This document shows positions 1,985-40,894 of a DNA stretch of 64,000 bases, in pieces. The stretch comes from Lophium mytilinum. Lineage: Eukaryota. The stretch is taken from positions 434,001 to 498,000 of the forward strand of contig MU004195.1 of assembly GCA_010093605.1 (NCBI GenBank). The letters run 5' to 3'. How positions within the stretch are numbered: position 1 is the stretch's first letter; the number at the start of each line of letters is the position of its first letter. Position numbers and translations under genes: made by a program. The notes below the pieces were generated by a model. The model was not told the DNA's origin. It saw only the letters and a list, made by a program, of their open reading frames with translations, and did not search any database.

Positions 1985-3237
1985 AAGTAAAGTGTGTATT
2001 TGGGATAGAATCCTCTGGAGATGTGGGGGTTTTTCCGACGTATACAGCGCCTGCGCGCGACCGGTGGATTTCAGCCCCCGAAGTTTAGAAGTGGGATGAT
2101 CCGAGAAGGCACAGCAAATGCGGAGCGTGGCGTTGTTGGGTCGAGCTCATTAGTCTAAAGCTGTGTTTTTCAGAGACCAAAAGCCACTCTTCTGGCACCG
2201 CAACCACATGCCCCGATACTTCGTACAGTACTAGGACACAAGTCGGATCTGATGAACCGTGCGTACCCCACCAAAGAACGTAGGGTGCTCGAAGAAGACT
2301 CTTGTTCACTGATCGTAACCACGAGATGCGTCCAGAAAGGGACTCCCTTCGTTTTGATATTGCGTGTTCTACCTGTGGCTTCAGAATCGCGCTAGTTCAC
2401 CAGACTGTAGAGAATCCAAAACTGTCCTAGGTTGATACATGCGTAATAAAGTAGATAAGTACATACTCAAGGTGTCGGTGAAAAGCACGGGCGGGACGGG
2501 TTAAGATTAACGGTCGACAGGTAGCGTCCGTGGTGTTAGAAATGGTTGGCCAACATCTGAAATGCCAATGATGGTCGTGTCCACATTTCTGCCTTGTTCG
2601 AGGCGACACCGTCTGAAAAGGAGACATTTGGCACGTGATTGAATAGCTCAGACCATCCTAATCAACCTCCTGTCGTTTACTCTTAACGCACCTGTTCGCT
2701 CTTCTAGTTCCCATCGCCAAAACCATCTCCTACCTCCTTTCAGATGGTAAAGTCTCCAACCTTTATGCCAGAGGATGGTGGCACAGCGCGACAAGGATGC
2801 TCCCCTCAGCTGCAAGCCACTCGCTTCTTGCAGCGGAATCGAGCCAATGAGGCTAGAAATCATCAACTGTCTAGGTAGGAGGCGTTTAGACGCGGGACTG
2901 CCCGGGGCTTGGCCAGAAATGAGTCACTAGGCACCTACATAGATAGGTGCTATAGATTAGCTCTCACCCCGCTCGAGACAACACAAACGCTAAACCCCAA
3001 GATTAGTGCGGCCCCAGACTTCGCAGTTCTATTCAAGCTGTGAGTTTTTCATTGCATTGCACCGTAGTCCGCAAGCTCCTAATTATTTCTGTTAGGGAGT
3101 AGCGGTGAGGGCTACGGCAGGCACGCGTTACCTCTTTTTTATCGCCTCACCTTCCTCTAGACCTCTTCTCTCCTATAACATCAATCAACATCATCACTCA
3201 ACAACATCAATCACTCATCTATCACTCATCTCCATCA

Positions 3238-3347
3238 CATCACTTACACGGCTCATTCATCCATCCAATACGTCATTCACACGGCTCATTCATCCAATAC
3301 ATCACTTACACGGCTCATTCGTCCAACACATCACTCACTTACACGGC
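3238..3347 (+). repeat. Four imperfect tandem copies of a ~30-nt unit (catcacttacacggctcattcatcc) upstream of the Argonaute ATG
   Basis: Copies start at about 3238, 3271, 3300 and 3332, between a TATA-like CCTATAAC (~3172) and the ATG at 3371. Confidence 0.85.
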
Positions 3348-3370: not shown

Positions 3371-6300
3371 ATGTCCACGCCAGGTGGACAAGGATTCAGA
3401 GGCGGCCGCGGGACGGGCCGCGGCGATCGCGGCGGCTATCGTGGCGGACGTGGTGCTGGAGGAGCCGGCCGCGGTGGAGGCGACCGCGGGCCTGTCCAGG
3501 AAGAGGTGCAAATCTACGTGTAGGTCATCATCGACATACAATGCGCAGCTTCTGACTAACACCGACTCAGACCACCAGACAAAATTATCCCAGCGCCCAA
3601 CACGCACGTCGCACAAGTCGAGGATGCCATCCAGAAATCTGCAGGAGGTCCAGATGCTCTTGCAGCATTGACCATGACTGAGGGCTTCCCTCATCGTCCT
3701 GGCTATGGTACCAGAGGCACACCCGTGACGCTGTGGGCCAACTATGTCGAGATGGTTCCTCCGCCGGAGCTCACCCTATATCGATACGATATGGCGGTGT
3801 CACCAAGCGCCGCGGGCAAGAAGTTGACGCAGATCGTTCGTCTTCTATTAGAAACAGAAACGATGGCCCAATTCCGCTCCGACGTCATCACCGACTTCAA
3901 ATCCACTCTGCTCTCGCGCCGCAAGTTGGCAAGTGACGACTTCATTGTGCGAGTCAGATACCGTGTCGAAGATCACGACGAACCCCGGGAGGGTGCAACT
4001 CAGTACCAGGTCCGAGTGCAATACACAACTGCCCTGTCTACCGCTCAACTCGTGAACTACTTGGAGTCCACTGACATTTCCGAACGTCTTCATGACGTGC
4101 AGCCTCTCGTCCAGGCCCTGAACATATTCTTGAACCATTACGCAAAATCAACCGGGAACCTAGCGACGATAGGAGCCAGCAAGACCTTCTCTCTTGGCCC
4201 CTCGGCCGCTAAATGGGATCTAGGCGCCGGCCTGACCGCCTTGCGAGGCTTCTTCAGCAGTGTCCGACTTGCAACCTGTCGCATCTTGGTCAACGTGAAC
4301 GTTAGCCATGGAGCGTTTTATGACGCAATACCCCTCGAGCAGCTAATAACGAAGTATGGAGCTGCACATAATAACAGCAAGGGAAAGCTGGCAAAGTTCC
4401 TTGAAAAGGTCCGCATTCGAACCACCCATCTGCCGGAAAAGAAGAACAAAGCAGGCCAGGTCATTCATAGGATGAAGACTATCTTTGGACTGGCCAATAG
4501 AAATGACGGTCACGGTCTACCTCATCCACCAAGGGTGAGGGAGTACGGCGCTGGTCCAAAGGATGTGGAATTCTGGCTGGACAGTCCGGCTCAATCGAGC
4601 AGTTCGTCGACAGCGGCCAAAGGTGATGGTAAGAAAAAGGGGAAGAAGGGAGCCGCTAGCGGAGCCCCACAGCCGGCCTCAGGTGGCCGATACATCAGCG
4701 TCTACGACTTTTTCTTGCAAAGTAAGTCTCCCCCACCACAACGCGGAGAGCCTTTCTCATCTTATTGATAGCTTACAACATTGCCATTGCCAACCCAAGA
4801 GTCCCAGTGGTCAATGTTGGCAATAGGGAAAACCCAACCTACCTTCCTGCTCAAGTCTGTCACGTCATGCCTGGGCAGAACTCGAAAGCGAAGCTTGATG
4901 CTAACCAAACCGCACAAATGATACGGTTTGCCGTAAGGCGGCCAGGGGATAACGCTACCTCGATTGTTCAACATGGGCTAGAGACTGCCGGCCTTTCTCC
5001 CCATACTAATCCCCTGCTGGTATGTATTGGAGTGCCATTTCATTCTTATCGCTTACCTTGAAATAGACAAACTTCAACGTTTCGGTCCCGCAAAAGCTAA
5101 TCACCGTTCTGGGGCGCGTTCTTACCGAACCCAAAGTCAACTACAAGCAAAAGAACGCTCAAATCCGGCTTGGCAGCTGGAATATGATGAACTATAAAGT
5201 CAACACTGCCGGGAATCTAAAGAGCTGGTCATACTTACTGGTTTCATCCCCCGGAAAGAGGGACGCGTTCAATGATGAGCAAAGCTTGACTGAAGTGATG
5301 GGAAGGTTGCATAGCACACTGAAGGACGTGGGTATCGCTGCAAGCCCACCGGCCAAAGGCAAGAAAATATCGATCACCGGGCCCGACGACCCTCAGCTCG
5401 AAAACACCATCAAAGGCGCAGCTGGTGCTGGGCTTGCCCTGCTGTTCATTATTCTCCCGAGCGATAATGCTCCAGAGTATAACCGGATCAAGCAATACGG
5501 CGACGTGAAATACGGAATCCATACCATTTGCAGCTTTGGAAACAAACTTGCCAAAGAGAACGGCCAGGACCAATACTTCAGGAACGTTGCTCTCAAATTC
5601 AACCTGAAGCTAGGCGGCATCAACCAACTTGTGGACCACTCTCGTCTTGGCCTCATCAACGAGGACAAGACCATGGTGGTAGGAATCGACGTCACGCATC
5701 CCTCTCCCGGCTCTAAGTCCAACGCCCCAAGCGTAGCAGGCATGGTCGCCAGCGTGGACTGCTGGCTCGGTCAATGGCCTGCCGTGCTACGGATCCAAGA
5801 CCAAGCCCGAGCCGAAATGGTCACAGACTTAGGCGACATGCTGAAATCCCGTCTGAAACTCTGGAAAGAAAAGGGAAAGCACCAGGCGTTCCCAGAAAAC
5901 ATCCTCATCTACCGCGACGGCGTGTCCGAGGGCCAGTACAGCCTAGTCATGGACTCCGAACTCCCCCTCCTCCGCAGCGCATGCGCGGAAGTCTACCCAG
6001 CCCCAGACCAGAAGAAGGGCCTCCCGAACATAACCATCATCGTCGTCGGCAAACGGCACCACACGCGCTTCTTTCCCACGAAATTGGGAGATTCGGACAA
6101 ACTCAACCCCAAACCGGGCACCGTCGTCGACCGCGGCGTGACCATGGCCCGCAACTGGGACTTCTTCCTGCAGCCACACTCAGCGCTGCAGGGCACCGCG
6201 CGCCCGGCCCACTACTACATCGTGCTTGACGAGATCTTCCGCCGCCGCTACAAAACCGTGCCGGCACCCTTCAAGAACGTCGCGGATGTGGTAGAGGATC

Positions 6301-6530
6301 TGACGCATAGTATGTGCTATGCGTACGGCCGGGCGACGAAGGCGGTGAGTTTGTGTCCGCCGGCGTACTATGCTGATATTGTGTGCGAACGCGCGCGCTG
6401 CTATCTGAATGATGTTTTTGAGGGGTCGACGGATTCGGGGGCGGTTTCGGTGGCGGGGAGTGAAGCGCTGGTGGGGAATGCGGATGTGCTGATTCATCCG
6501 AGGTTGAGGGATGGTATGTTCTATATCTGA
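3371..6530 (+). CDS. qde-2: Argonaute, QDE-2-like (RGG N-terminus, N/PAZ/MID/PIWI)
   Basis: Exons 3371-3519, 3571-4721, 4772-5019, 5067-6530 with GT-AG introns that join in frame. Motifs: RPGYGTRG, NVALKFNLKLGG, GIDVTHP, YRDGVSEGQ, VGKRHHTRFF, QGTARPAHY, PPAYYAD. Confidence 0.96.
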
Positions 6531-8691: not shown

Positions 8692-9229
8692 GCCCCCCAG
8701 CCTGCCCAAACTTTAGGAATGCGGCTCTTTACCTGGAGTGAATTGCGAGATGACTATATGGCTACGGAAACTGGGCTGGGAACCGACTGGTTATGTCGTA
8801 ATGAGGGCTATCACAACTTGGGAGGGATGCAGGCGACATCCACAAAGACTGGCTGCTTTGATGCGCTGCGGGATGCTGGGTGTTCAGGATACCGGTTTGG
8901 GAGGTTTGATTTTCGGGTTATGCTGCGAGCGATACCAAAATGCGATTCATTTTAGCTACTACTACTTTCCCACCCTTACTCTCCACTTTCACTTCTCTCA
9001 GTGCTTCATCAACATGTCCGATTTCCTTGCTACTGATCTGCTACTACTCGTCCGGTACTGAGCGACAGAGTCTACCTTGGTCGCACGTTACGGGCAGACG
9101 CGAAGGTGAGAATAATTACATTATGGCTTGAACACTACTCGCTGCAAAGACTGTAACTTCACTCTGAGACAAGCCCTACGCGGACATCTCTGCTAGTCTT
9201 CTTAGGAATAAGTCCTTTGAAACTATGAT

Positions 9230-10558
9230 CACGTGTAGTTTCAATCTTCCCGTGACCTAGCTTTGTCATCCTGGATCCGGAGTCTATAACTCCCTGCCCT
9301 TTGCCAACCTTTCATTCTTCGTGGTGGAAAAGAAGTCGGACTGGAGATTGCAACAAAGTTATTCCCTCTCCCCATGGCCTTGCAAAACACAGGATGAATT
9401 CCGTCAATGGCTGGATCTGGTGCTCGGTGTTCAATCTTCTTTATTGAGGTTTTTATTGGCGTTGAGAGTGGACTATCAACACATCTCATTCTCCAACACG
9501 ATGAAGTCGGCAGAGGGCTTATCCTTGATCGGTAAAGGTTGCATCGAGATGGTTAGCATCACTTCCCCATGAGGCCGAAGAGATTGACTCCCATACAGCC
9601 ATACTCCAGCTTCAATCGCTCGAGATGACTATCTCAAACTCTATGTGGCTACTATCCTCGCTTTCTTAGAAAGAAGCTCGCCATCATCACACTACCTAGC
9701 GTACCACCGCAACCTTCTTCCAGCTCCATCGGCAGTTTTCGTTCCTGTTATTGACACCCCCTACTCCCCCAACTCCTCCTTCAAACGCTACGCTATTGAG
9801 GTTGACACGCCCTCCAAGTGTTCATCTGGTCCTATGTGTTGCTCCAGCTCCAGCTCCATAAAACGGGCGCCTCGATGAGTTGAACCACCACAGCCCACCC
9901 ACACCCCATAGCAGCTGGGATAGTTTGTTGATGTTTGAACCTCCTCCATGTATTAGAGTCTTTCAGGGTTTTCTTTGGACCCACCACACCTCCCCTCCCC
10001 ATGTCGAAGAGAGGGCAAGCAGTTCTGAGCCTCCTCCATTCGAAACTAACAGAGCATCTTTTGACCCACCACACAACCACCCCATCATAAACTTCTCTCC
10101 AAGGGTCTGAACCTTCTCCATTCCGATGGTTGCCAGCTTGCGTTCGATCCACACCTCCCACCCCGTGGCTTTTAAACCTGCGATGGTTTTGCGCATCTTC
10201 CATGAAATTCTTTTTTTAGATTGTTGCAAGACTGCACCGCACCTCCCACTCCATCGAAACTGTGGTTTGCTTGTTTTGAACCTCCATGGATTTCCCACTG
10301 TGGCTTTTCGATCCCACCCCTCCCCCACGCCACGATCCTCCCACTCCATCCAGAGTTATTACCATCGAATTTGATCCTCCATCCGGTTCCAAGAGTGACA
10401 ATTTCGATCCACCACTCCCCCATCGAGCCCATGAAGCTGGCATTGCAACTTTTTTGATCCCCGAACCCCCAATCCTCCTTCCTCTGAAGAATTGACCTTG
10501 CAGCTACCAGGCGAGCCTTTATACCCCCTACCAAAGAAAAATATCTAGCTGCCACGTG
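9230..10558. repeat. Cassette cluster 1: one + and one - promoter/repeat-spacer cassette, convergent; the - cassette has ~17 spacers
   Basis: + cassette: CACGTG 9230, TATAA 9285. - cassette: CACGTG 10553-58, TATAAA 10523-18. On the + strand the array reads as repeated CCAT-N22-27-(T)TGAxC plus a C-rich linker from ~9726 to 10459. Confidence 0.85.
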
Positions 10559-11507
10559 GCGCACATGCCGTTCCCTCCGCACGACCACGTTCCCCTCACT
10601 CACCGCCTCTCCTACCTCCATCACAAGTCACCGACCACATCACGCGTCACAGACCACATCACGCATCACTCAATCCAACCCCAAACTCCTTGATTCCCGC
10701 ACCCATCGCATTCCTATCTAAACACACCCTACAGTTACACCCCCATCCACCCCCAAACCCCCCGCTTCCCTCACCACACGCACATCCCCCCCACCACATC
10801 GCCAGAGCATTCCAGCATCTGACTCCGCAGCAAAGAGTCCTAGCACGCACGACAAAAGCTATCGACTCCAGAGAGCTAGCAGCAGGTAGAGGCACCAATC
10901 AGGAAAGAAAGTATTATGCAAAGAAAACCGCCCCGCTCAGAAACTCTCAATTCGTCTCATCGCTCAAAAACCCCGCTCATTAAAGAAAGAAGAGAGACCA
11001 GACCAACTTTTCCCCCGTGCATCGCTTCCGTAATCCCCGCTTCCGTTCGTTTGTAGGATAACAAACGTTAGACCGGTAATTAAAGCCCTCCCGCTATGCC
11101 AAATCCCAGCCCTCCGTTGCCAAAAAGACCCATCATCGATCATGAGTGCTCGAAAAGGAAATTCGTTTCGTACCGGGGGTTTGCAAGGCCATGTGTCGGT
11201 CGGTCGGGAGTCAAGGAAGTATGCAAGGTAGCAGTCGGCCAGTCACCAGAAAAGAAAAGTGTGTGCAAAAGACAAAATGAAAAGAGAATCCTTACGCTTA
11301 TGCAAAGAAGCTTCCGCTCGAGGCGAGAAGTATGCTTCCCGTGCAAATCATTCACACTTCATCCGCTGTGCGAAGTCTCAGCCGGCATTTTTCAGCGCGA
11401 CTGTGACCAACACCCGCAAGAAGCCATTCTGATCCCATCCCCATTACCACTCCGTCGATTCTCCCCTCGTGCTTTTGGTAGTGTTGTAGTGAAGAAACAC
11501 CCAGCTC

Positions 11508-14500
11508 TCAACGTCCCACGTTCCTGCCGCCCGTAGCCAACCGGTTGAAGTCATTCACCCTGTTAGCCAGCGCCAAGATCTTCCTCAGCACCGCTTGGCC
11601 AGGGCCCCTCGGCGTATTGAACGAGTGGTACGCAGTCGTAAGCCTCTCCGTGAGGAGCTGCATGATTCTCGGAACCACGTCAGCCTGAAGATCCGGGTCC
11701 TGCGGGTTAACGCTATCCAAGACGGCCTCTAGCCAGGTAAGCCGCTCGACGATGAGATTGTGGAATGGGTCGGTCACGACGACTGCAGATGACAGAGCGT
11801 ATAGGGCCGAGACGTGGGCGAGGTAGTCAGGGTTGCATCGGCAGAATATGGACTCAAAAAGGGCCGGTGGATTCGATGAGCGAATCCACTATGCATGTTA
11901 ACGGAGGCAGTGAACGATATATGGGGGATTACTTACCATCGATGTTGCTTCGCTGAAGTCGCCTAGTTGCAACAGCCTAGTGATTTCGTCCTCGGTCTCC
12001 TCGAGAGAGCTCCTCGGGGTCTGAGATTGGGCCTGAGACTTAGTGGGCGACAGTTCCGTGCGGGGAGCGGAGGTGGACGCAGAGCCAGGGCCACCAGCGT
12101 ACGAGTGTTGCGCCTCTTCAGCGGTCCTAAGCATGCTCATTTGGAAGCTCTCCTGGGAAGCAGCCATGGATTGTACCGTCCCAGTGAGCCCTTGCACGAG
12201 CTTTGTGAGCTGCTCAACCTTTTGGGTCTCCTTCTGGCGCTGAAGGTTGGCGTCGCGCAACTGCTCAGCGAACCGGTTATCCATCACCTGAGTGAGATTG
12301 TTCAGCGCCGGGCCCAGTGCGACAGAGAGCGAAGACGTGACAGTTGCTTCGAAATTCGCTGTGACCTTCTTCGAAACAGCATCCGAAATCTTGCCGAGGA
12401 ACTGCGGATTCTGGATCTGATTCTGCAGAATTACGCTGAGAGATGGGAGAACCGCCTGGAGTTCGCCTGGAAGAGTGCCCGAGATGGCTTTCTTCAGCGT
12501 CTGCTGGAGTTCCTTGTTGATAGTCTCGTTCACCGAGTCAAGCAGCTTCGGCAAAACGGTTGTCTGTACAGACTTCGTGATGATTTCATTGAAGCTTCGC
12601 TCAACATTCTGCGAGAGTGTTTCGGAAACCAGGCGGAGAATGGCCTCTTGCTTGGCATTACCGGCCGCCACGTGAGCGCGATTGTCGATATCAATGCGCT
12701 TGTGAAGCGCCTCTACCTCCTTGGTTAAAGTCTTCGAAAACTCCGCAGAGATATTTTCTTCGAGCTTCTTCACATCCGGCGGGGCAATTGCAGAGCTAAC
12801 AGGTGTAGACTGCTGCAGAACTTGGCTGAGCAGTCGGGTGGCCCATTCCGGAGCCTCTGTTTCTGAAGCTTTTGATCGAGAGTTGTCGGAAGACTGCGGC
12901 AGGATAGAAGGCGAGCTAGCGCTCTGTGCTGCTTGAGCATACGACGCGGAGGAAGACGTGACAGTTGATTCCTTGGCCTTGGCACTGGCCTGGGAGCCTT
13001 CAGTGTTCGATTTGTCCTTCTTCTTCTTTTTCTTCTCTAGCTTTTCAGGAAGCTTTTCAGGGCCATTGATAATCGCAGCCCGAGCAGCGTCCTGCTTGCT
13101 CTCCACCTTCGCCAAAGTAGAAGCCCTCATTGCAGCTTCTGATGTAAGCGACTGGCGAGTTGCTGCGCTACTCTCTTTCTTGATGCTCTCGCGAGCTGAT
13201 CGATCAGACCCTGGCTTGCGAGCTGACGTTTCACCGGCAGCCGAAGTATCCTCGCTAGCAGAAGACAATTCGATCTGCTTGATGGTACCAACAACAGCAA
13301 CACCAGCCTTCTCCGCATCAACGGGATACAAAGCTTCGCCGTCGTTCTTCCATCCAAGATCTGCCTGTCGAACAGCTACCACACTGACACCCTTGGACTG
13401 CATGACATACAACTCAAAACGAGGCTTGTCTTGAGGCTTGGCGTCATCCGGTGCAGAGCTGACTGGGTCGTTGAGCATCTGAAGACTACGGAGCTGGCCC
13501 TTGGAGGAGAAGGAGTACTCGTGAATGCTGGTCATGATTGCGGTTGCGTTCACGGCCGGTAGGGGCCTAATGCTAGGCTCCTTCTTCGCCAGCTGCGAGA
13601 TGTATGATGCCTGGGAGAAGGGCTGCAGATTGTAACGCGGGCAAGACACGTGGATGAAGAAGACGGAGTTCCTAGTAGGATGTCCAACGGCCAAAATCCC
13701 TGTCTTGGGGTGGAAAGAGACACTGCAAATGGCGTCCGACTCCTTCTCGTGTGGAAGATTGATTTCCTGAACAGGCTTTCCGAGACCGAGGTCCCATAGC
13801 TGGAAGGAGTGATTCTGCTTCATACCCACCATGACATATCTCAACGCAATGCCCTTGGCGCACGGGCGCTCCTTGTCGAAGAAGAAGATGGATGTGGGCC
13901 ACGATTTGACGTTAGTAGACGTAGTGTGATGCTCCGTGATCGGTTCGCGGATTTCAACAGGGTCGATCTCTATTGTGGAGTTTCCGAGGTGCTCCAAGGT
14001 CAGCGGACGAATGTCCCAGAAGCGCATCCTGCCGGCCTTATCCAGGGATGCAATGACTGTATCATCCTCACTGAAGGCGAAGTCCTTGCCCGCCTTGCCA
14101 GTCAATATCTTGAGAGGGCGATCCTTGAGGTAGGCCTCGGTGTTGCAAATCTGAGTGTCCGGATCCGTGTATCTCGGCGAGCGTGCGACGTTAGGAAAGA
14201 TGATGTGAATCGCCTTTCCACGGCCAACAGCGAAGAACTCGGGGTGTCGGCAGCTAGGCTTGGCGCGCGTCTTCAGTTGTCCACCAGATGTGTTATCATC
14301 TTGGGTAGCGGCAGGTGGAAAGATGACGCTGTGGCCAGGGAGGAGTTCAATAACGTCATCCTTGGTGTTCACAGCAGTCCAAAAGACCGCTCCATTGACA
14401 CCAATCCCAAGGATGGTCTCCGGAGTCCCCTGCGATGAAGCAAGGTCGGCAGAAGGAGCGGAGCAGGTGGCAAGATTGAAGATGCGCTCTTTGTAGTTCT

Positions 14501-16237
14501 GAAACACCTGTCGGTACTGGCCGTTATCCTGGCGAATGATCCGGAAACCATTGGTCTTGCCGCCGAGAGCATAGACAATGTAAAGCTTGGTGGCGGTGAC
14601 CAGGCAACGATCAATCTGATCGAATTCCTTCTTCAACCTCGCAACGTCCATGAAAGCCGACGGACGGAAGGAAGGACCCGACAAACTCTTGTTGACCGTG
14701 ATGGCGGCGAACGCTCTCATGGGGAATTTGAAAACTTGGATCTGCTGTTCTTCATCCTTGGCCGGGCTATCTTCAGCTTCCGCGCTCTCCCAGCTGTCCA
14801 CAACGTCCGCGTCACCGAGGTCAGCCTGGGCGACTTCTTCGACCACCTCTTTCAAGGCATCGGCCATTGGTTTCGGCAAAGTCTCTTCGATGTCGTGGCG
14901 AGTCTCGGGATCATCCAACTCCTTCTTGATTGAGATTGCTGCCTCCTTCATGGCCATCTCAAGTTCCTCGACTTCTTTCGCTTCAGCATTGGCCTTGTCA
15001 TGACCGTTTGACTGTTTGTCCGCTTGTGCAAGGGCTTCCTCCACTTGCTTGTCGACTTGTTCGCCGATGCCACTCACGGCCTCGGAAACCGTCTCGTGCG
15101 GATTTTGAGTAGGGAAGTGCGAAGTCGCACCCGGTGAAATCTTGCGGGTCTTCGAGGCGGGACCCGAGACTTCGGATCCGTTCTCTTTGCCGTCTCCTCC
15201 CGACGAGGCATCCCTGCCATGCTTTGGCTTCAGTATTTCCATCTTGCGGGTCGGCGCGGCGGCGCTGGTGCGATCGGGCAGAGGGGTGCGATTGCGAGGC
15301 GACGCGGCGTTGTTGGCGCGCTCGGGGACGGGAGTGCGGTTGCGAGGCGTCGCAGCCGAAAGCTGCTCGAAAGGATTGACGTAAGTGAACATCGAGGGCT
15401 TGGGAGGCGCCTGAGGAGCTTCGAAAGTCGAGTCGCCGGTCTTGCTGTCACCGAAAACGCGGATGGGCAATTCGGTGTCTCCACCTGCAGGTCCAGAAGA
15501 GAACGTCTCCAGCTTCGCGTCTTCCAAATCGTGGGCAAGATCGTCGACCCGTGTAGCGGAGGAGGCAAGAAAGGCCGAGACCGGTATTGCGCCTCCACGG
15601 AGGTGAGCAGAAAGTTCGCCCTGGGGAGGTTTGGGGTGGTTGAGCAGTCGCAGCAGCAAGTCCTGGGGAGCTTCATTCGCGGGCGTGGCGTGTTCGGCTC
15701 GAGCGCTGGGCGCGGGTGAGGCAGCAGCCGATGAGCGAGACGCGCCCTGCGACGGCTTGCGCATGAAAGAGGCAACCAAGTCGGAGGCAGAGGTCGTGCG
15801 ACCGTGTGCGCCCTGTCCTTCCGCCATTGACAAGTTCTGCACGGACTGCTGAGATGGTCGGCGCTCCGGGGCGCTGGCCTGATTCAGAGCTCCGGGGCCA
15901 TTGAACCTCAGCAGGTTGAGCAGGCTTGCCGTCTTATCGGAGCTGCTCTGACCAGGAGCTGGCGTGTTATTGACCGAGGTGTTTGGCGACATGACGGCGG
16001 ATTGGTTATGAGGTTGCGGGCCTGAAGGCGCGGGCGAGTAGACGGGCGAGGAAACGGAGGGCTGGTGGTAGTGAGGAGCTTGTCCAGACGTATCTGGCGA
16101 GGTGACTCCCTGCTTCGCAAGGCGCGCAAAGAGCTCTGTAGCAGGTGTTAGCACGGTGAACAAGCGTCGAAGTTCGAAGCTGGATCTATTGAATGAGGCT
16201 GGCTAAAGAAGAGCCATGTACCGTTGAGGTCCGCCAT
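11508..16237 (-). CDS. EDC4/Ge-1/Pdc1-like enhancer of mRNA decapping (P-body scaffold; beta-propeller plus coiled coil)
   Basis: Exons 16237-16222 (MADLN), 16135-11937, 11888-11508. Recalled fungal family motifs DVARLKKEFDQIDR, GGQLKTRAK, HPEFFAVGRGK, GKAGKDFAFSEDD, followed by a long helical C-terminus. Family call is from recall, not a search. Confidence 0.75.
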
Positions 16238-20108: not shown

Positions 20109-20975
20109 TCGACCTGCCCGCGCGATTATAGAGATCCTTTATCCTTCACAATTGATCAATGAGCGATTACCCATTTTGTAACATAGATTCGGACACCTGC
20201 TATGTGGCGGATGATTCGGAAGGGGCGGTGGGACTCCGAAGAAGAGCTTATGCGACATTTTCAACGGCGTATCCGGGATACTGGAATGGCAACCAAATTT
20301 GGGCTGACGGAAGAATCCCAGTTAGACTGGGTCGGGACACCCAGGGACTTGGAGCGGATTGGGAATTCGGTGGAACGGTACGGATAAGTACCAGGGGTCG
20401 CGTACCCTAGGAGTTCATGTACTTTACCCAATGGCATCACGAAAAATTCACAAACTCTTTTTGCAGCCCTTTCTGGCTAAAATAATCTTAACAAGTGCTA
20501 TAGCTAGGGCCTCATTACCACCCCAGCAACAGCCTGGAAGTTACAAGCACTGATGCATCGAACATGTACCCACCTAAACTAGCCTACAGAACGTAGCCCT
20601 ATCGTCTTGGGCCGAAACGCGCTCAAATGGTGGAGAAACCTACAGATCGAACCGCGTCACAGCTTTGAGCGGTCCCAACGTGTCCCACTGCGCGCATTAC
20701 AAGTCCTCCCACACAAAGTCGAAGCAAAGCTACCGACTGTCGTAGAGGTCTACCGATCGGCATCAAACATCATGTCAACCTCCCTCTTAAGCACCCTTCG
20801 TCTGCCATCCAACGTCCTCCAATCACCCAAAGCTGACATAGTTCGCCGAAGTGTTCTGAAATCCGCAGACTCAACCGCACTACACCCTCCGGTTCACCTT
20901 GAATGCTTTCCCTGGCGTCCAAGAAGTCGCCAAATCACCCATAAACCTTCTCCTCTCAAGCCCAGTAGGCCATGT

Positions 20976-23170
20976 CACATGTCCATCCCGTGACCTCGGC
21001 TTGGCGGGGGTATAAAACATCTCCGCTGAAGCGACTCGATCCCTTGTCCAGAGGTGGAGGCTGGGGCGGTGGTTTCAACAGAAAACATGGTACACATACA
21101 TGGTCGTCGTTGTGGTTGGATCAAAAATTGCTGACGAGTCCTTCATTATGGCTGGGGGGGGAGTGAAGTGGTGCAACACATGCGTCGCCTTTGGGCAATG
21201 GAGAGGGGGTGTGGTGCGTTAGGTGCGGCGACGGTACCTGTGTTCTCAGTGATTCGAGTCAGCGGTGTCTACCGATGCATCTCTTCCCTTCCGTCCATTG
21301 GTGGTGAGATCGATTGGGGTGAGCAAGCTGGCTGTTAGAGACGATCGTCAACTTGGTTGCATGCTGGATGGCATCATTACACCAGGCAGACACCCCACAA
21401 CATTTACGTTTCTGTAGGATGGTTTTGCACGCCCCAATCCACCCCGATTCACAGGCCCCATCGCCCTCTTTTTTGATCCGGCGCTTCCACTCCCATGGCC
21501 AAGACGTTGTGGAGGTTTTTGTCCCTCAAAGCAAGATCCACAGACTCCTACAGGACGAAGTCTCCGCAACCAACAAGGAGAATTTATAGTACAACCGCAG
21601 GGTAGAACACGTGAAGCGTGAGAACTCAGCCCCGAGACTCCGCCCTCACTCACCAAGCATCGGTTCAGCGTCGTCCGCCAGGGGCGGTCGAGGGAATGGG
21701 GAAAGCACCTGACTCTCACGTGGACCGGGACCTCTATTCTCCCCCGCCGATGGGCAGGTATAAAAGGGCCAGTGCTAGGTGGCCGACCCCTATTTGCTAT
21801 TTGGCCGATGCTGTATTGCTATCTAGCCTACCAACCCCCCTGCGGGCCTTTCACCGCGTTCTGATTGGCTCGGATGGCTCTTAGGAAGGTTCGGATATTT
21901 TACTCTGCACGTGTAGTCTTTCCATTTTATCTACAGTCTTCCTATTTTAGTATAGCTACGTGTATAGCTACTTGCCTACCTATCTACCTGCCTGCCTAGG
22001 AGAATGCCTAAACTGTTAATTTCGCACCTAATAGAGGCCTTCTCTCTATCGCTGCTAGCCTACAAGCACCTACGTAAAGTCCTTATTAATAAGATCTTCC
22101 GCATACTTATTAACTTCCTTAATAGCGGGCTTACGAGCTGCTTTATAAGGCTGCGGCTGGCCTCTGCTCTTTTATTTTATGCTCCGGAGGAGCCGGCCCG
22201 GTAAGCGAGCCAATTAGAACGCGGTGAAAGGTCCGCAGGGGGGTGGGTAGGCTAGATAGCAATACGGCATCGGCTAAGTAGTAAAAAGAGGTCGGCCACC
22301 TAGCACCGGCCTATAAAAGCCCCTCCCCGTCTGAGATTCCTTTTTCAGAGATTGTACGGGTTGGGAGTCAGAAGAGCAACAACGGAGAGAAAGAGCGAGC
22401 ATGCTGCAAAAGAATCCCATGAGATCTCGATGAATGGCTGGTCTGGGATTGCTTTCTTCTGTAACACCTGCAGTGCAAGAGCAGAATGGCTGGCCTTTAA
22501 GCTCTACACCATGCTGATGGCGTCCAACAACCCTAAAGGTACAGGGAAGTCCCACTAGAAACCTTTGCGCATACGCAGCAGCAGGTCGAGGCGACGTCTA
22601 CCATCTACAACAGATGGTGCCATTCAGCGCTCTGCAAATCTCTCTCCGCCAAATCCCGAACGCGCCCATGACATCGTTTGTGTCTCGGTTTTACACCAGA
22701 CCCAGCGACACCATGAAAGGATTCTTTTCTTGCTTTTATATCCCGCCCCCAGAGCCATGACAATGCGTACATATTGGGTTTTGATCCTTGGAAGCACCCC
22801 GAGAGTCGCTGGACAACAAATCTACAGCTGACGAGGCGAAGATTTATAGGAGAATTGGAGAGGACACGTGAGATACATGAGACACGTGAACGGAGCAAGA
22901 TCGCGGGCAAGGAGTTCACGTGGTAGAGCGTTCAGGAACGACCTGGGACTTCACATTCACGTGAACGACCGGGATCCTCAGGAGGTATAAATTCGGCATG
23001 TTCTTCGGTTTGTACCTAGTCTTCATGGGTCGAGAGGTGGGAGATTGTATCCTAGGGGAGTACATCGCGATGATGGAGGCAAAACGGGACAATGCAGCGA
23101 AGAATGGAGGTGTGGATCAAACTGGACGGACCGCATGCCCAATGGCTGCAGTGTTGGTTTTCAGAAGATA
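20976..23170. repeat. Cassette cluster 2: five alternating (+,-,+,-,+) promoter/repeat-spacer cassettes
   Basis: TATA boxes at 21011(+), 21588(-), 21759/22312(+, duplicated by a MITE), 22848(-), 22986(+). CACGTG at 21608, 21717, 22865, 22883, 22917, 22958. 23-nt spacers at 21077-21099, 21175-21197, 23081-23103, 23119-23141. Confidence 0.8.
21767..22311. mobile_element. 545-bp non-autonomous TIR element (MITE) with ~106-bp TIRs and an 8-bp TSD TATAAAAG; Mutator- or hAT-like
   Basis: 21767-21872 is the reverse complement of 22206-22311 with few mismatches. TATAAAAG flanks both ends (21759-66, 22312-19). TpA-rich interior, no transposase ORF. Confidence 0.92.
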
Positions 23171-23505
23171 GGAAGAAATTGGGAAGAGCGTAGATGAGCG
23201 GGAGTTAAACTTAATAGTGGCCTGCGCCACATGCAAGTATAATTAACGGACAACGTTTTGCTTCTATGGTCAGTAGCGAAAACAAGGGCGTTAAGAGGAA
23301 AGGAATGTTAATATTCTGCTAAGCTTCATCAGTGTGCGATGAAAATATGATCGCGATTGACGCGTCAAGCTGTTGGAGCTCGGACCGATGACGTAGGACT
23401 GTTTACATACCGCGCATCACCATCTGGCATCCCACCCTTTCCGTCTCAACTCCAGACCTGTCAATCATTACATTTATACCAGCAGAACTTCCAATACCTC
23501 GCAAG

Positions 23506-24861
23506 ATGCCTCGTACTAAACGTCCACTTGCTGAAGCTGATCCCAATGCCTCCGCTGGCCGGGTGACACGCTCCAAAGTGGTCAGATCCGACGGACCCAA
23601 GGGTAAAGAAAACAAAACGGCGTCAGGGGCGTTTGAAAGCAAGAAGTATAGCAACAAATCGAAATCCTTGACGAAACACGCGGAGAAAGATGTAGGGCTC
23701 GAGGGATACGCCAACGTATCAGACAATCGACTGGGATGGCTCCTACTGGATCGAGGACTTCCCTATGGTAGAACGGACGAAAGGGACGTGATGATCATGC
23801 GTCTCGAGATATCAGATGCACTCGCGAAGGAATTGAACGTACCACTTTATATCCCGCCAAACTTCCCGCCGTCCAAAGCGGACAAGAGCAAGGCCGAGGC
23901 CATCAATCTCAGGAAGCAGACCGATTTTGCCTCCAAGGACAATAGCAAGCTCCGGTCGATGCTAGAAGCCCGCAAGCTGTCTACACTAGGACCACGGGAT
24001 GAGCTAGTTCAGCGCTTGGAGGCGCACCCGATGGTCGACTATGAGCAATACACCACGGATGAGTTATCGGCAATGGCGTCGCGACGACACATGAGAACGG
24101 GCGCCACTGGTCCGAAGGCTGTGAAGATTGCACGTTTGCGCATGAATGACGAACTAAAACGCGATACGGGAAATACGCCAGAAGGTGAATTATATGGCTG
24201 TATATCTGCCATAGAAATGTTTGTAGGCGCGTTTCGGCGAGAGAAAAATAGAGTCCTACGCGGCGACTACTCATTCGTTAAAAGTTTCGGCTGTCGGCCT
24301 GCACCAACTCTCAAGGAGCTTCTACACGAACGCAACTTACCGGAGTCTGGAAATATAGCAACAAAGTTGGAGCGGTTGCGTAAGGACGATGCATCCAGGG
24401 GAACGCCGTTTGCGACACGCATCTTCGAAAAGCAGATCAGCGATGCACGGTCCGAATGGGAGAGATTACGAGTGAAGTTCGAAGAATTTACAGGACGTCC
24501 TCTTCGATGTGTTTCGGAGGATCTAAACGTGGAAAACAAGTTGCATCAACGCGACCCAATCTACAACGCCCCAAAAGATGACCCTCCAGTCAAACACATG
24601 GTTAACTATGACTGGCGCAGTTCGCACTGGGCTGATCGGAGCTTGCATCAGCTGCTGGATATTGCAAAGAGTCGGGGTATGCCACATGCCAATGGAGCAC
24701 CAAAGGCTGCAATGATCAAGTGGCTCGAGACGGGGGAGCTTGACTACGAAGAATACTACACTACAGCCCTTTACGCTATGTGTTCAGAAAGAAACATCAG
24801 CGTCAAATCGGCCGAGAAGTAGGTCGAGATCATTAGACTGCTGAAAGAGCATGAAGACTAG
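23506..24861 (+). CDS. Multi-SAP-like repeat protein; in-frame TAG at 24820-22 interrupts the last repeat
   Basis: Repeated SAP-like helices (LRSMLEARKLSTLGPRDELVQRL; LKELLHERNLPESGNIATKLERL; LYAMCSERNISVKSAEK*VEIIRLL). Confidence 0.65.
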
Positions 24862-25400
24862 CTCACTCTTAGCGCCGGCCATACTCACTTCAAGGATCCG
24901 GAGCAGATTTCAGTGACGTTAAGACCTGGGCACGATGTATTGCGCATGAACAGATCTGTTCTAGAAGAGGCATGATTTATACTAGCCCTGCACGAACCTA
25001 TTTCTATCCGTACAAAGGCTAGCCAGATGCCATTTACTGTCTTCCAACTTACAGTCACGTGACTCATAGAGATTATAGGTTTACAAAATAATTCATCAAT
25101 ATTAAGCTTGATCTCACCGTTCCAGCAAGAAGCACAGCGGCATTCATGTACCGTTCTGCTTCCACAATTGAACTCTCGCGTCGTTTTGAGGTCCTTTGAC
25201 CTTAGCGAAACATTCAAAGTACCCTCCGGCACATTCCAGCCATTAGGGAAGCGGCGCTGCTGTCATCCACAAAAAGAACGCTAAAACGCAAACGCTCACC
25301 ACAAAGTGTCGCAACGTACTCCATCTCATCGGTGTCTGCTTTCCCAATATTTCCTAATTACTATCCTAAAATACAACAAGAACAACGAAGTATCGGCGTT

Positions 25401-38182: not shown

Positions 38183-40894
38183 CACGTGTCCCACGTGCCC
38201 TTGCTGCAAATCTCCTATAAAACCCTCTCCTCCCTCGACCAGATTCCTTCTCCATGGGTTCGGTCCTCTCGAGGATCAAAAGAAGATCTCAGGGTACATC
38301 ATGGTGCTGGGGGTGGGAGATCGAAAACTAGGTTTTCAGCATGTGATGGTGGCTGTTGCGGTCTGGGTGTGCAAAATAGCGAAGACACAAGCCATGGAGG
38401 AGCGAGTCGGCGGTGTCTCCAGCCCAGTGATGATGATGTCTCGCAAAAGAGCTAGATGCAGCTTTTCTCCAGCAGCCAATTCGATAAAGGAGAAAGAAGA
38501 GCCCTACGAGTGATGTCGAGCAGCATCGTATAGCAATCGCGAGGAAGCCGGACGCAGGCACCGACTCCACTCGGCCATTTTACGGCTATCCAACTGGTTT
38601 TGCTCACACATGTAAGGTCTGGGCGCATTGACTCCACTCGATCATCAGACACTCGAGGCTATCGTTTTGCTCCCACCATTATTGACCATGTCCGCCGTTT
38701 TTCAAACACCCCATTTCCACGCCTCGACGACGAACTGAAGAGGGGTAAGAGGTGGGAGGTAGAGGTTTTATACCCGCCAGAAGACGTTTGGAGCTTGAGG
38801 GCACGTGGGGACCATGTGCTTTGAGAAATGTAACCGGATGAACGATGTCGTCATGGGCCTATTCGATGCAGAAAGACTGGGAAAGGGGGTTGTCACGTGT
38901 GCCACGTGCACGCCTTCCTGGGACTTCCTATAAAAGCCTCTATGCCTCTCGTCTCGACATCTTCTGCAGCGGGGTAGGCTTCTTTAGGAGGAAAAACGTC
39001 GATGAACTTCAACCATGGTTCTGGCGGTGGGAGATCAAAGCTTAGGGCCAATCACCCCATGGAGGTGTGTTGGGTCTGTGGAGCAGAAGCTGGAAGGCCA
39101 GACTTTCAATGAAGGCGTGTCGGAGTACGCAAAAGCCTGGTGATGACGTGTAGCAAAAAGAGACGACGCCGCTCTGATTCATCCTAGAACGAAAATAGAG
39201 AGGGAAGGTAGTTAGAGATGCTGGAGAGCAGCAGCAGCTCGTAGTAAAGGGGCTGCGACACGCGCTCCCGACCGCCCAGCCATCAATGGCTTGCTCTTCA
39301 ATTTTTGCTCCCCCATGGAAGACATCGTTAAGGAGGTCTTAAATTCACCCTTGCCTCACGTCGAATAGAGAACGAACAACCCCATCAGCGCGATCTTGGG
39401 GTTTTATACCCAGCAGCAGGAAGCCCAAGCGTGACGCTCACGTGCATGTCACCTGCCCACATTCGTATCTTTCGCATCTTACCATGAGAGACCTCCTTCC
39501 AAAAATGCCGTCCAGCAGACCGGTGGGGAGAGCGAAATCACGCGTCCCACGTGCCTCCCACCTCCCACATCCTATAAAACCTCCCCTTCCACGCAGCAAC
39601 TTCTTCTGCAGCGGGCCTTGTTCTTCTCAGAATCAAATATGCTTGAGCGGGATAAGATGGAGGAGGATCAACGATCCCAAGAAACGAGGCCATGGTCCGG
39701 TGGGAGGTCAAAATCATCTACCCGGACTATTATCGTTCGGCGGTGTTCTCGAAAAAAGTTGCTGGGGAGTCCTTACATGGAGGGGTGCGCTGCGGGAGGG
39801 CTGATGGTGGCTAGCAGTATCTAAGGTTGCTGGTGGGGATTAGCAGGGCTAGGAGATAAGAATGAGGAAGTTGAAGGAATAGTGGAGCGCAGCAACGCGA
39901 GGTGGTAAGAAGGTGGACACTCCGCGCGCCCATGGGCAATGTTGGAGCGATGTTTTTGCTCCCACCATGGCACGGCGAGGCGCTACAATCTGTTTTACTC
40001 CCCCGAGTGCACACCTTGTTGAAGCACGGAAGAGAATAGGAGAGCAGAAGAGAGGTTTTATACCCATCAACAGCCAGGCACGCGGTAGGGCTTTGAGACC
40101 ACGTGAGAGCCACGTGCTTCCGCTTACTGCAACCTGCTTTGGTCTGTGCTGCTCAGGTATTCTACATCTTGGGAACGAGCGTGACCGATCACGCGCCTTA
40201 CGTGCCCCCCTTCCCTCCATCTACTATAAAACCCCAACCTCCCTCGCAGAAACTTCTTCTCCAGCGGGATTTGGGTCTCTGGAGGAGCAAAATCGGGCTC
40301 TCCACGCTCGAATGGATCTGGGGTAGAGATTAAACCAACGATCGTTACTGCAGCATGGCTGGAGGCTGTGGGTTGGTGCAAAACAAGTAACACCGGGTGC
40401 CTATGGCCGGGATCGGATTGAACTCGGAAACAGAGAGACGCGATGGAGGAGTGCTTGTAATGTTGTAATAATGGTTAGCATTGTCTATAGGTGTCAGTGG
40501 TCTTCAAAAGCGTTAGAGGGTTGAATGGCGTAAAGAGGATATTGTGGTTTTCGTGTTTACCGAGGGAGGTTTCCAAAGAGTAGATGGAGAGAATGATAGA
40601 CATCATCAGCAGCCTGAGATGGCGATCGGTGACGACGAGCGGATGACGCTGGCTCAGCAACCAGCAACCAGCCACCATGATATCCCATCGCTTGCCTGTT
40701 TGATCCAGCACGCGGGAGTCCTCCATCATTCTTGTCTGGGCGGATTTTGCTCCCCAGCTTCCCACATGCGTCGCCTGGCAGGAACCTTTAGATATCCTCG
40801 GAATTGCCCTTTGATGGACAAAGATCCGAGGGGTGGAAAAGGTCTTATAGCTAGCGGACAACCGATGGGAGGGTCTGTGCTCGGAATGCACGTG
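38183..40894. repeat. Cassette cluster 4: eight alternating promoter/repeat-spacer cassettes
   Basis: TATA at 38216(+), 38772(-), 38929(+), 39408(-), 39573(+), 40062(-), 40225(+), 40849(-). CACGTG at 38183, 38192, 38802, 38894, 38903, 39439, 39548, 40100, 40111, 40889. 23-nt spacers at 38278-38300 and 38323-38345. Confidence 0.88.

Follow-up and report, generated by a model that had tools for sequence, protein, structure and literature searches.

Within the 64-kb window analyzed here, by which we mean the whole stretch of DNA at its full length, arrays of short and regularly framed segments are found between ordinary protein-coding genes. The neighbouring genes encode a MARVEL protein, an EDC4-like protein (mRNA end at 10812), GH85, a SAP-domain protein, a RAI1-like protein, NmrA, an aspartyl protease, an RFC subunit, a subtilase, an SDR and a HET protein. 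A Pfam scan also places an Argonaute gene at 3668-6530, 3 kb from the largest of the arrays. The presence of spliceosomal introns and of the HET-domain gene shows that the host is eukaryotic. When 38 distinct ORFs of the window were scanned against Pfam, neither Nop nor Cas-like proteins nor any further nuclease candidate turned up, in a search that may miss genes split by introns. The nearby genes for RNA decay and RNAi are suggestive in the context of the arrays, and their proximity could be coincidence.

The largest array, referred to here as the main array, is read on the minus strand and is far beyond chance. Segmentation by script divides it into 17 segments, or cassettes, joined by linkers (Table 1). 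The original prediction described an array of 17 spacers as the longest, and it is indeed the largest of its family; the end coordinate proposed for it, 10558, belongs to an E-box and not to the array. Starting from the promoter, the cassettes measure 23, 23, 23, 22, 23, 26, 24, 24, 23, 23, 24, 28, 27, 22, 25, 23 and 23 nt, which gives a range of 22-28 nt with 12 of the 17 at 22-24 nt. These lengths agree for the most part with those first reported, and the four places that differ by 1-4 nt depend on where a fuzzy border is placed. Cassettes start with RAA (typically AAA) straight after ..G(G)WTC and end straight before ATGG, and borders are degenerate in three distal units. The linkers are G/T-rich and measure 27, 10, 40, 10, 25-29, 13, 21, 13, 23, 13, 25, 13 and 28 nt, followed by three that are degenerate; both these lengths and the later decay of the pattern match the first description, and the five near-identical short linkers that were quoted in it are present as written. 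Long linkers (21-40 nt) and short linkers (10-13 nt) alternate perfectly over the first 13 (7 long, 6 short), an arrangement that simple arithmetic gives a chance of 1 in 1716 if the same linkers were placed in random order.

Within the 761 nt of the array, ATGG occurs 16 times, compared with 5.2 ± 2.1 in 500 shuffles (largest 12), and G[AT]TC[AG]A occurs eight times, compared with 0.76 in shuffles (largest 4). Tandem Repeats Finder identified only three short runs and no repeat spanning the main array, as expected if the spacers are mutually unrelated. The short-linker motif is not enriched over the whole window, with 10 matches and 8.98 expected. The signal in the main array resides in its grammar rather than in any single 10-mer. 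Every long linker of the main array contains a two-tetrad G-quadruplex motif (11 motifs, compared with 4.7 in shuffles), three-tetrad motifs are absent from the 761 nt, and the GC skew over 10001-12000 is -0.22. The motif that closes the array is common to other arrays in the form GRTGRTGATGG.TAGCA, as seen when nine array ends are aligned.

Table 1. Positions of the main array, its convergent partner and the related clusters within the window.
Feature	Position	Strand	Basis or remark
E-box CACGTG	10553..10558		upstream of array promoter
TATA box TATAAAGG	10516..10523	minus	motif listing
Leader, TATA box to first cassette, ends ..GGGGATC	10456..10515	minus	~60 nt
Array of 17 cassettes	9730..10455	minus	segmentation; linkers alternate for 13, last three degenerate
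Cassettes 1-6	10455-10433, 10405-10383, 10372-10350, 10309-10288, 10277-10255, 10229-10204	minus	
Cassettes 7-12	10190-10167, 10145-10122, 10108-10086, 10062-10040, 10026-10003, 9977-9950	minus	
Cassettes 13-17	9936-9910, 9881-9860, 9840-9816, 9803-9781, 9752-9730	minus	
Last linker and end-of-array motif ..GTGATGATGG	9681..9729	minus	alignment of nine array ends
Unique transcript tail	9429..9680	minus	AATAAA at 9457-9452 and 9445-9440; RNA contig ends 9429
X3 contig 9	9429..10182	judged only from AATAAA near 9429 end	754 nt, depth 123
Convergent partner of main array	9230..9432	plus	CACGTG 9230-9235, TATAAC 9285-9290
Two cassettes of partner	9351-9373, 9384-9406	plus	ATGG after each
Family cluster 1	21011..23150	both strands	arrays of 2-3 cassettes
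Cluster 1 TATA boxes	21011(+), 21588(-), 21759(+), 22848(-), 22986(+)		
Family cluster 2	28508..31480	both strands	four convergent pairs in tandem; arrays of 2-6 cassettes
Cluster 2 TATA pairs	28549(+)/29168(-), 29375(+)/29959(-), 30122(+)/30762(-)		
Cluster 2 fourth pair	TATA 31428(-)		facing plus-strand array at about 30910-31010
Family cluster 3	38183..40894	both strands	four convergent pairs
Cluster 3 TATA pairs	38216(+)/38772(-), 38929(+)/39408(-), 39573(+)/40062(-), 40225(+)/40849(-)		

Motif scans and self-BLAST identify approximately 20 transcription units of the same grammar in the 64-kb window, with arrays that hold from 2 to 17 cassettes. Family loci that share this grammar lie at 21.0-23.2 kb, 28.5-31.5 kb and 38.1-40.9 kb. 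Most of the units are organized in convergent pairs (promoter-array facing array-promoter), and within clusters the pairs follow each other in tandem every 650-820 bp, sharing divergent E-box regions. One unit of the first cluster, that with its TATA box at 21759(+), is split by a MITE. The linkers in the clusters form a single class of ~22 nt with ATGGT at the start and GGAGATC at the end, which gives a period of ~45 nt; alternation of long and short linkers is confined to the main array, and the ~19 sister arrays have one linker class. Strict cassettes number 48 in the window, compared with 2.7 in shuffles (largest 7). The paralogues are only ~65% alike at best, even in the best segments found by self-BLAST. 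A metagenome scan with a two-cassette pattern returned 37 loci, all of them single chance matches or unrelated purine-rich satellites, and no relative was among them. The best explanation is that the family is lineage-specific and that its host is a Dothideomycete fungus.

CACGTG occurs 43 times in the window, compared with ~15.6 expected from its length, and the copies are clustered at family promoters. The proximal E-box carries a CCCACGTG flank, of the kind associated with Pho4-type factors. The first ATGG of the array lies 91 nt from the TATA box in the main array and 83-94 nt from it in 18 of the 20 family members. A search for an E-box-like sequence, TATAA and a downstream cassette gave 22 sites, compared with 0.70 in 100 shuffles (largest 3); by eye, 20 of these matches were judged to be family members and two to be unrelated. 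Judged again by eye, the sense strand of each unit, as set by its adjacent TATA box, is in every case the G-rich one. This tracking of G-richness with promoter direction points towards RNA, or the act of transcription, and not towards DNA sites that function in either orientation.

Evidence for transcription is provided by sequencing run X3: GT..AG and CT..AC introns of the neighbouring genes are skipped in it and kept in the DNA run X1. Together with its mismatch-free match to the window, this identifies X3 as RNA of this organism. One X3 contig (contig 9) has no mismatch and no joint, is unspliced, and has a depth of 123, compared with 118-703 for neighbouring genes. The RNA that it represents carries at least ten uncut cassettes, and it stops 11-16 nt past the second of two AATAAA signals. 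In our reading, an array-sense RNA is polyadenylated at 9429, where the contig ends, the contigs themselves carrying no strand. The start of a second contig (contig 12), at 23030, lies 44 nt past the TATA box at 22986, and this contig spans the cassettes of that unit into the next gene. Its start indicates that the family TATA boxes are used and that the cassettes lie inside the RNA, downstream of where it begins. In this sister unit the transcript thus starts at most 44 nt past a TATA box; for the RNA of the main array we infer the strand and the 5' end. By bin arithmetic, no X3 contig lies over 10183-10811, which takes in the promoter and the upstream half of the array; the units at 20640-21973 have little or no cover, and the depth is ~7 over 28644-29300. 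Such gaps in coverage are uninformative. The locus has the E-box, TATA box, transcript, 3' end signal and lack of an ORF that characterize a Pol II non-coding RNA gene. Two other explanations of the punctuation were considered and rejected in the context of transcript processing. Tandem poly(A) sites would fit the layout, in which an A-rich element precedes a YA by 23 nt and GU-rich sequence comes next, but contig 9 reads through ten cassettes. Tiny GT..AG introns within the linkers would be 12-18 nt long, compared with 48-82 nt for real introns, and no joints are observed.

Searches for known types of structured RNA gave no assignment. No Rfam match reached the gathering score anywhere in the window, and weak matches were limited to three chance-level lncRNA hits (E 1.2-8.4) in 9200-10700, with none in 28400-31600. 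No snoRNA cluster of the box C/D or H/ACA type is indicated by these searches. Folding of the array gives an MFE of -230.9, compared with -231.9 ± 6.3 in shuffles (z +0.15), and folding of the tail (9429..9680) gives z -0.88. Since the array folds no better than shuffled sequence, it is not a usual Dicer substrate. A miRNA-like or other hairpin precursor of small RNAs is rejected for the lack of stable hairpins beyond chance, and hairpins between paired spacers are excluded by a folding energy equal to that of shuffles. Linker ends loosely recall a B-box or T-loop consensus. An origin from tRNA was rejected because ARAGORN found 0 tRNA genes and the last motif position of these linker ends is lost. 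In a search for spacer targets in the 64-kb window, the best matches were 15-18 of 23, similar to those of shuffled cassettes.

The conservation of the units is concentrated at their borders. A logo of 67 ATGG-anchored units has A at 0.64, 0.76 and 0.79 for positions -23 to -21, G-rich flanks on both sides, and 19 interior positions that carry no information. A strict ..TC|RA border lies 10-45 nt upstream of 37 of the 83 array ATGGs; in 26 of these 37 the distance is 22-24 nt, and in 17 it is exactly 23. The interiors of 68 spacers match each other at a mean of 6.96 of 19 positions, compared with 6.88 in shuffles (maximum 13, compared with 12-14). Comparison of the divergence of spacers and linkers had been set beforehand as a check, and global alignment of 33 units places spacers at the level of shuffles (0.475 compared with 0.479) and linkers above it (0.549 compared with 0.461). 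The original prediction argued that ordinary minisatellite decay would not keep the length of spacers as their sequences diverge, and these values agree that plain decay is inadequate; the retention of length in randomized sequence holds across the ~20 paralogous loci. At the usual ratio of indels to substitutions, sequence randomized to this extent would have lost its length. As the length has been kept, it appears to be under selection. Borders, spacing and promoters, kept in all 20 paralogues, are probably subject to purifying selection, which would act on the punctuation and the spacing and not on the content of the cassettes. The loci probably constitute a selected non-coding gene family.

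Traces of how the arrays expanded are also evident. In the main array, 10337-10422 and 10242-10327 are 66.7% identical over 87 nt at an offset of 95 nt, and the youngest adjacent pair in the array at 30.4-30.7 kb remains identical at 16 of 23 spacer positions. The residual likeness of adjacent units suggests that the arrays grew by tandem duplication followed by divergence, and not by acquisition of foreign spacers. A module of two spacers had been put forward as the working or duplicating unit. For duplication in the main array such a module is supported, both by the alternation of linkers and by the match at 95 nt; it does not extend to the other arrays, with their single class of ~22-nt linkers.

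These observations can be accommodated by a model in which the loci are a lineage-specific family of Pol II non-coding genes whose 23-nt cassettes, measured from their borders, act as RNA. We advance this reading, with its mechanism, tentatively and at less than even confidence, and any function is putative. Each gene opens with one or two CACGTG boxes and then a TATA box, from which a leader of ~60 nt runs to the 2 to 17 cassettes. A cassette is 23 ± 1 nt of free sequence, with AAA directly after ..GGWTC and its end directly before AUGG. G/U-rich linkers of 10-40 nt join the cassettes, the G-rich strand is in all cases the one transcribed, and arrays grow by tandem duplication, the module in the main array being two cassettes. 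The geometry GGAUC-AAA-N20-AUGG stays fixed when the joint is either 10 or 40 nt, which suggests that the cassette is the measured unit, and we infer that it acts at the level of RNA. The working unit would then be the cassette on the RNA, measured from both borders. A protein or RNP could dock on these borders and release or protect each cassette as an RNA of ~23 nt, and a single inducible transcript might thereby deliver many different small RNAs.

Release or protection of the cassettes as small RNAs is possible, if doubtful. Since 23 nt is the size of Argonaute guides, release is weakly favoured; loading into Argonaute is speculative, and the nearby Argonaute gene gives it weak circumstantial support. 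Fungal Argonaute-bound RNAs are usually reported to start with U, and the cassettes here start with A. The stable, long and uncut RNA, the lack of hairpins, the lack of targets in the window and the lack of relatives in the metagenome scan also argue against release, and we know of no endonuclease in eukaryotes for borders of this type. It is unlikely that the arrays are a eukaryotic repeat-spacer system encoded in the chromosome, in which inducible Pol II transcripts bear up to 17 cassettes of 23 nt that, once cut at their borders, serve as multiplexed guides for Argonaute or another effector; this would make them a fungal counterpart of CRISPR/TIGR or of 21U clusters, arising by duplication and diversification and not by acquisition.

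Other models place the activity elsewhere in the same loci. The long polyadenylated RNA could itself be active as a multivalent platform or sponge, in which a two-surface protein binds GGAUCAAA and AUGG across a fixed gap. Up to 17 copies of the protein could then be held on each transcript, which would titrate or assemble RNA-binding proteins in the manner of repeat-module lncRNAs. We regard this as somewhat unlikely. It accounts well for a stable, unspliced and apparently polyadenylated RNA with many intact cassettes and for short motifs kept around free spacer content, it leaves no secondary structure to be explained, and it requires no novel nuclease. The difficulty is the exact span of the spacer, constant to ± 1 nt beside linkers that range from 10 to 40 nt, when known platforms tolerate variable spacing; furthermore, there is no candidate binding protein, and the motifs match none that we could name. 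An element acting as DNA and coupled to transcription is improbable. Convergent G-rich arrays could form R-loops or G-quadruplexes and serve as zones of termination or fork pausing, recombination hotspots or chromatin boundaries; in a variant of this, the cassette would be a module resembling a core promoter, with an initiator and a downstream element at fixed spacing. The sense orientation of the G-rich strand (by eye), the GC skew, the two-tetrad motif in each long linker and the convergent pairing of units are all consistent with such roles. TC|A is also similar to an initiator, and initiators and their downstream elements typically lie a fixed distance apart with free sequence between them. 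However, R-loops and G-quadruplexes need neither ATGG/GGWTC borders nor a 23-nt ruler, three-tetrad motifs are lacking, and the RNA of the unit at 22986 starts upstream of its cassettes.

A selfish or neutral origin is quite improbable; the loci would then be a transcribed satellite, or an element of the foldback kind, ~700 bp long and without a role in the host, whose punctuation is fortuitous. The units are in tandem at 650-820 bp, internally inverted and intergenic among ordinary genes, and foldback transposons with arrays of subrepeats have a similar layout. Against this, paralogues that are ~65% alike have kept the E-box, the TATA box, the distance from TATA to ATGG, the borders and the spacer length, which drift would erase; no target-site duplications or terminal repeats are seen, and conversion tracts would homogenize spacers as well as borders. 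Very improbable is a role in encoding protein, whether as a real hypothetical protein of 169 aa or as a string of ATG-led mini-ORFs. A public gene model does lie over the array, GW/WG dipeptides abound in its translation, an Argonaute gene is nearby, every linker opens with ATGG, and the array at 38301-38510 is open for ~70 codons with all of its ATGs in frame. Of 34 clean units, 18 have a linker whose length is 1 modulo 3, and in 18 the length of the unit is divisible by 3; this mild excess could point to a degree of translation, or to triplet slippage within runs of GGN. On the other side, stops occur in all three frames across the array, leaving no consistent reading frame, and position -3 before the ATG has no purine preference. 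Peptides from the first ATG of the 20 paralogues are 4-87 aa in length and share nothing beyond the linker itself. A search with a 150-aa ORF against 5.8 billion proteins gave one match, the 169-aa hypothetical protein named for Lophium mytilinum (self), and HMMER against 1.8 billion representatives gave only this model and two unrelated tandem-repeat proteins, so no homologue is found in either set. The model hops between frames by means of two predicted introns that the RNA contig does not support: contig 9 retains that at ~9915-9987, and the other is unjoined. This public model is probably artefactual.

The border-measured arrangement invites comparison with prokaryotic guide arrays, and TIGR had been named as a loose analogy. 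TIGR-Tas systems of prokaryotes and phages have spacers of 8-9 nt and box C/D motifs (PMC12045711), dual-repeat units of ~36 nt with two short spacers and 16-18 nt variable in all (PMC12045711), and a gene for a Nop-domain Tas protein adjacent to the array (PMC12045711). The similarities are short variable segments between short repeats, alternating classes of repeat that resemble edge and loop repeats (in the main array only), and transcription of the array as one precursor. The differences are spacers of 22-28 nt, two-spacer modules of 83-113 nt, a fungal host, the lack of box C/D, and the lack of a Nop gene among the 38 ORFs scanned. The absence of box C/D motifs had been recognized from the start, and in the 761-nt array there are 0 RTGATGA, 0 TGATGA and 1 CTGA (2.4 expected). 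As a statement of membership the analogy therefore fails, given these missing motifs, the 23-nt spacers, the missing Nop gene and the eukaryotic host. CRISPR arrays are similar in having a promoter-bearing leader, a repeat-spacer grammar, unrelated spacers of fixed length and degenerate repeats at the far end. CRISPR repeats are constant in length and sequence, with cas genes nearby and a prokaryotic host. Here the repeats are 10-40 nt and not palindromic, no cas genes were found among the ORFs scanned, the host is a eukaryote, and a search of the window gave no match to any spacer; neighbouring spacers keep a residual similarity (16/23 in the youngest pair), which points to duplication rather than acquisition. 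The main array is not a member of either the TIGR or the CRISPR systems, and the likeness is one of form only.

The anatomy of these loci fits no known eukaryotic RNA family, and any function is putative. Loci of this kind were not found in open-access papers or bioRxiv at the level of listings and abstracts. If the cassettes are functional, they would represent the first eukaryotic family in which punctuation frames many unrelated segments of Argonaute-guide size on each transcript, and would make it possible to ask directly whether single-stranded, punctuated precursors give rise to small RNAs in fungi. A more sober reading is that of a multi-copy and apparently regulated family of lncRNAs with an exact 23-nt ruler. 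It poses the question of what measures 23 nt from GGAUC to AUGG.

Among eukaryotic systems, the nearest would seem to be the 21U clusters of nematodes and the repeat-module lncRNAs, both differing in key respects. In Caenorhabditis elegans, 21U-RNA (piRNA) units are mini-genes of their own with an upstream motif. They resemble the fungal units in that many small, unrelated units of fixed length each have a conserved motif beside them at a set distance, and in that both strands of a single chromosome region carry the cluster; the fungal cassettes, as putative small-RNA units, differ in that one TATA-driven transcript bears a string of them, each with a motif on either side. The Xist A-repeat, NORAD and meiRNA of fission yeast are likewise polyadenylated Pol II non-coding RNAs with a repeated short motif and non-conserved sequence between the copies. 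Their spacing is loose and they are single-copy, whereas here the spacing is held to ± 1 nt in ~20 paralogues arranged in convergent pairs. Neurospora disiRNA loci share the convergent promoters over a short non-coding interval and the setting in a filamentous ascomycete, and differ in lacking a repeat-spacer grammar. Minisatellites and foldback transposons have tandem short units, inverted arrays and unequal copy numbers in common with these loci. The units of a minisatellite are alike throughout, whereas here only the borders are alike, with the length of each cassette held and its sequence randomized.

In the run judged to be RNA by its skipped introns (X3), one contig extends from one member of the repeat family, whose units carry an E-box, a TATA box and then cassettes of ~23 nt, into neighbouring protein-coding genes. 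The 5′ edge of this single contig lies 44 nt downstream of the family TATA box (22986), and the contig contains two cassettes followed by SAP-domain and RAI1-like genes. Either the family promoter drives a protein-coding mRNA whose leader has many upstream ATGs, or overlapping transcripts have been merged. Upstream of family TATA boxes, E-boxes occur in pairs with 9-18 bp between them; the proximal one is often CCCACGTGCC and the distal one often TCACGTGT. This arrangement suggests control by a bHLH factor, and the E-box flank is possibly Pho4-type.

Another family unit carries a MITE-like insertion, with terminal inverted repeats (21767-21872 and 22206-22311) that are 91% complementary. On either side is TATAAAAG, which looks like an 8-bp target duplication and appears to interrupt the TATA box of the unit. 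Additional contigs from X3 and the DNA sequencing run X1 map to 21991-22313, which shows that the element is present in multiple copies.

The public gene model over the 17-cassette array is probably an annotation artefact. Its reading frame switches via two predicted introns, which lack support from the RNA contig over the array; its translation contains approximately seven GW/WG dipeptides. The genes for Argonaute, EDC4-like and RAI1-like proteins are each less than 25 kb away from the arrays, a closeness that may be coincidence.

Features of the window, in order of position
Feature	Position	Strand	Remarks
C/A-rich tandem repeats	3177-3347		Units 28-33 nt; immediately upstream of Argonaute gene
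Argonaute gene	3668-6530	+	ArgoN, ArgoL1, Piwi domains
Public gene model	9912-10432	-	169-aa hypothetical protein; overlies array
Tandem repeat, 19 nt	10619-10669		2.7 copies; 87% matches; includes ACGCGT
EDC4-like gene	11898-16163	-	Decapping enhancer
MITE-like insertion	21759-22319		106-nt terminal inverted repeats
RNA contig	23030-27641	+	From 44 nt past family TATA box into protein genes
RAI1-like gene	25729-26739	+	Nuclease
Dispersed repeat	26770-26887		Short, high-copy
Paired E-boxes (examples)	29199-29222, 38183-38201, 38894-38908, 40100-40116		Family promoters
TA-rich tandem-repeat block	63387-63693		Close to window end

The 19-nt tandem repeat sits immediately upstream of the array promoter, and the minus strand is G/T-rich throughout 10560-10800. 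The dispersed repeat is of high copy number, with numerous DNA and RNA contigs of differing flanks stacked on it and X1 depth reaching ~3000. At the TA-rich block, GC falls to 0.42.
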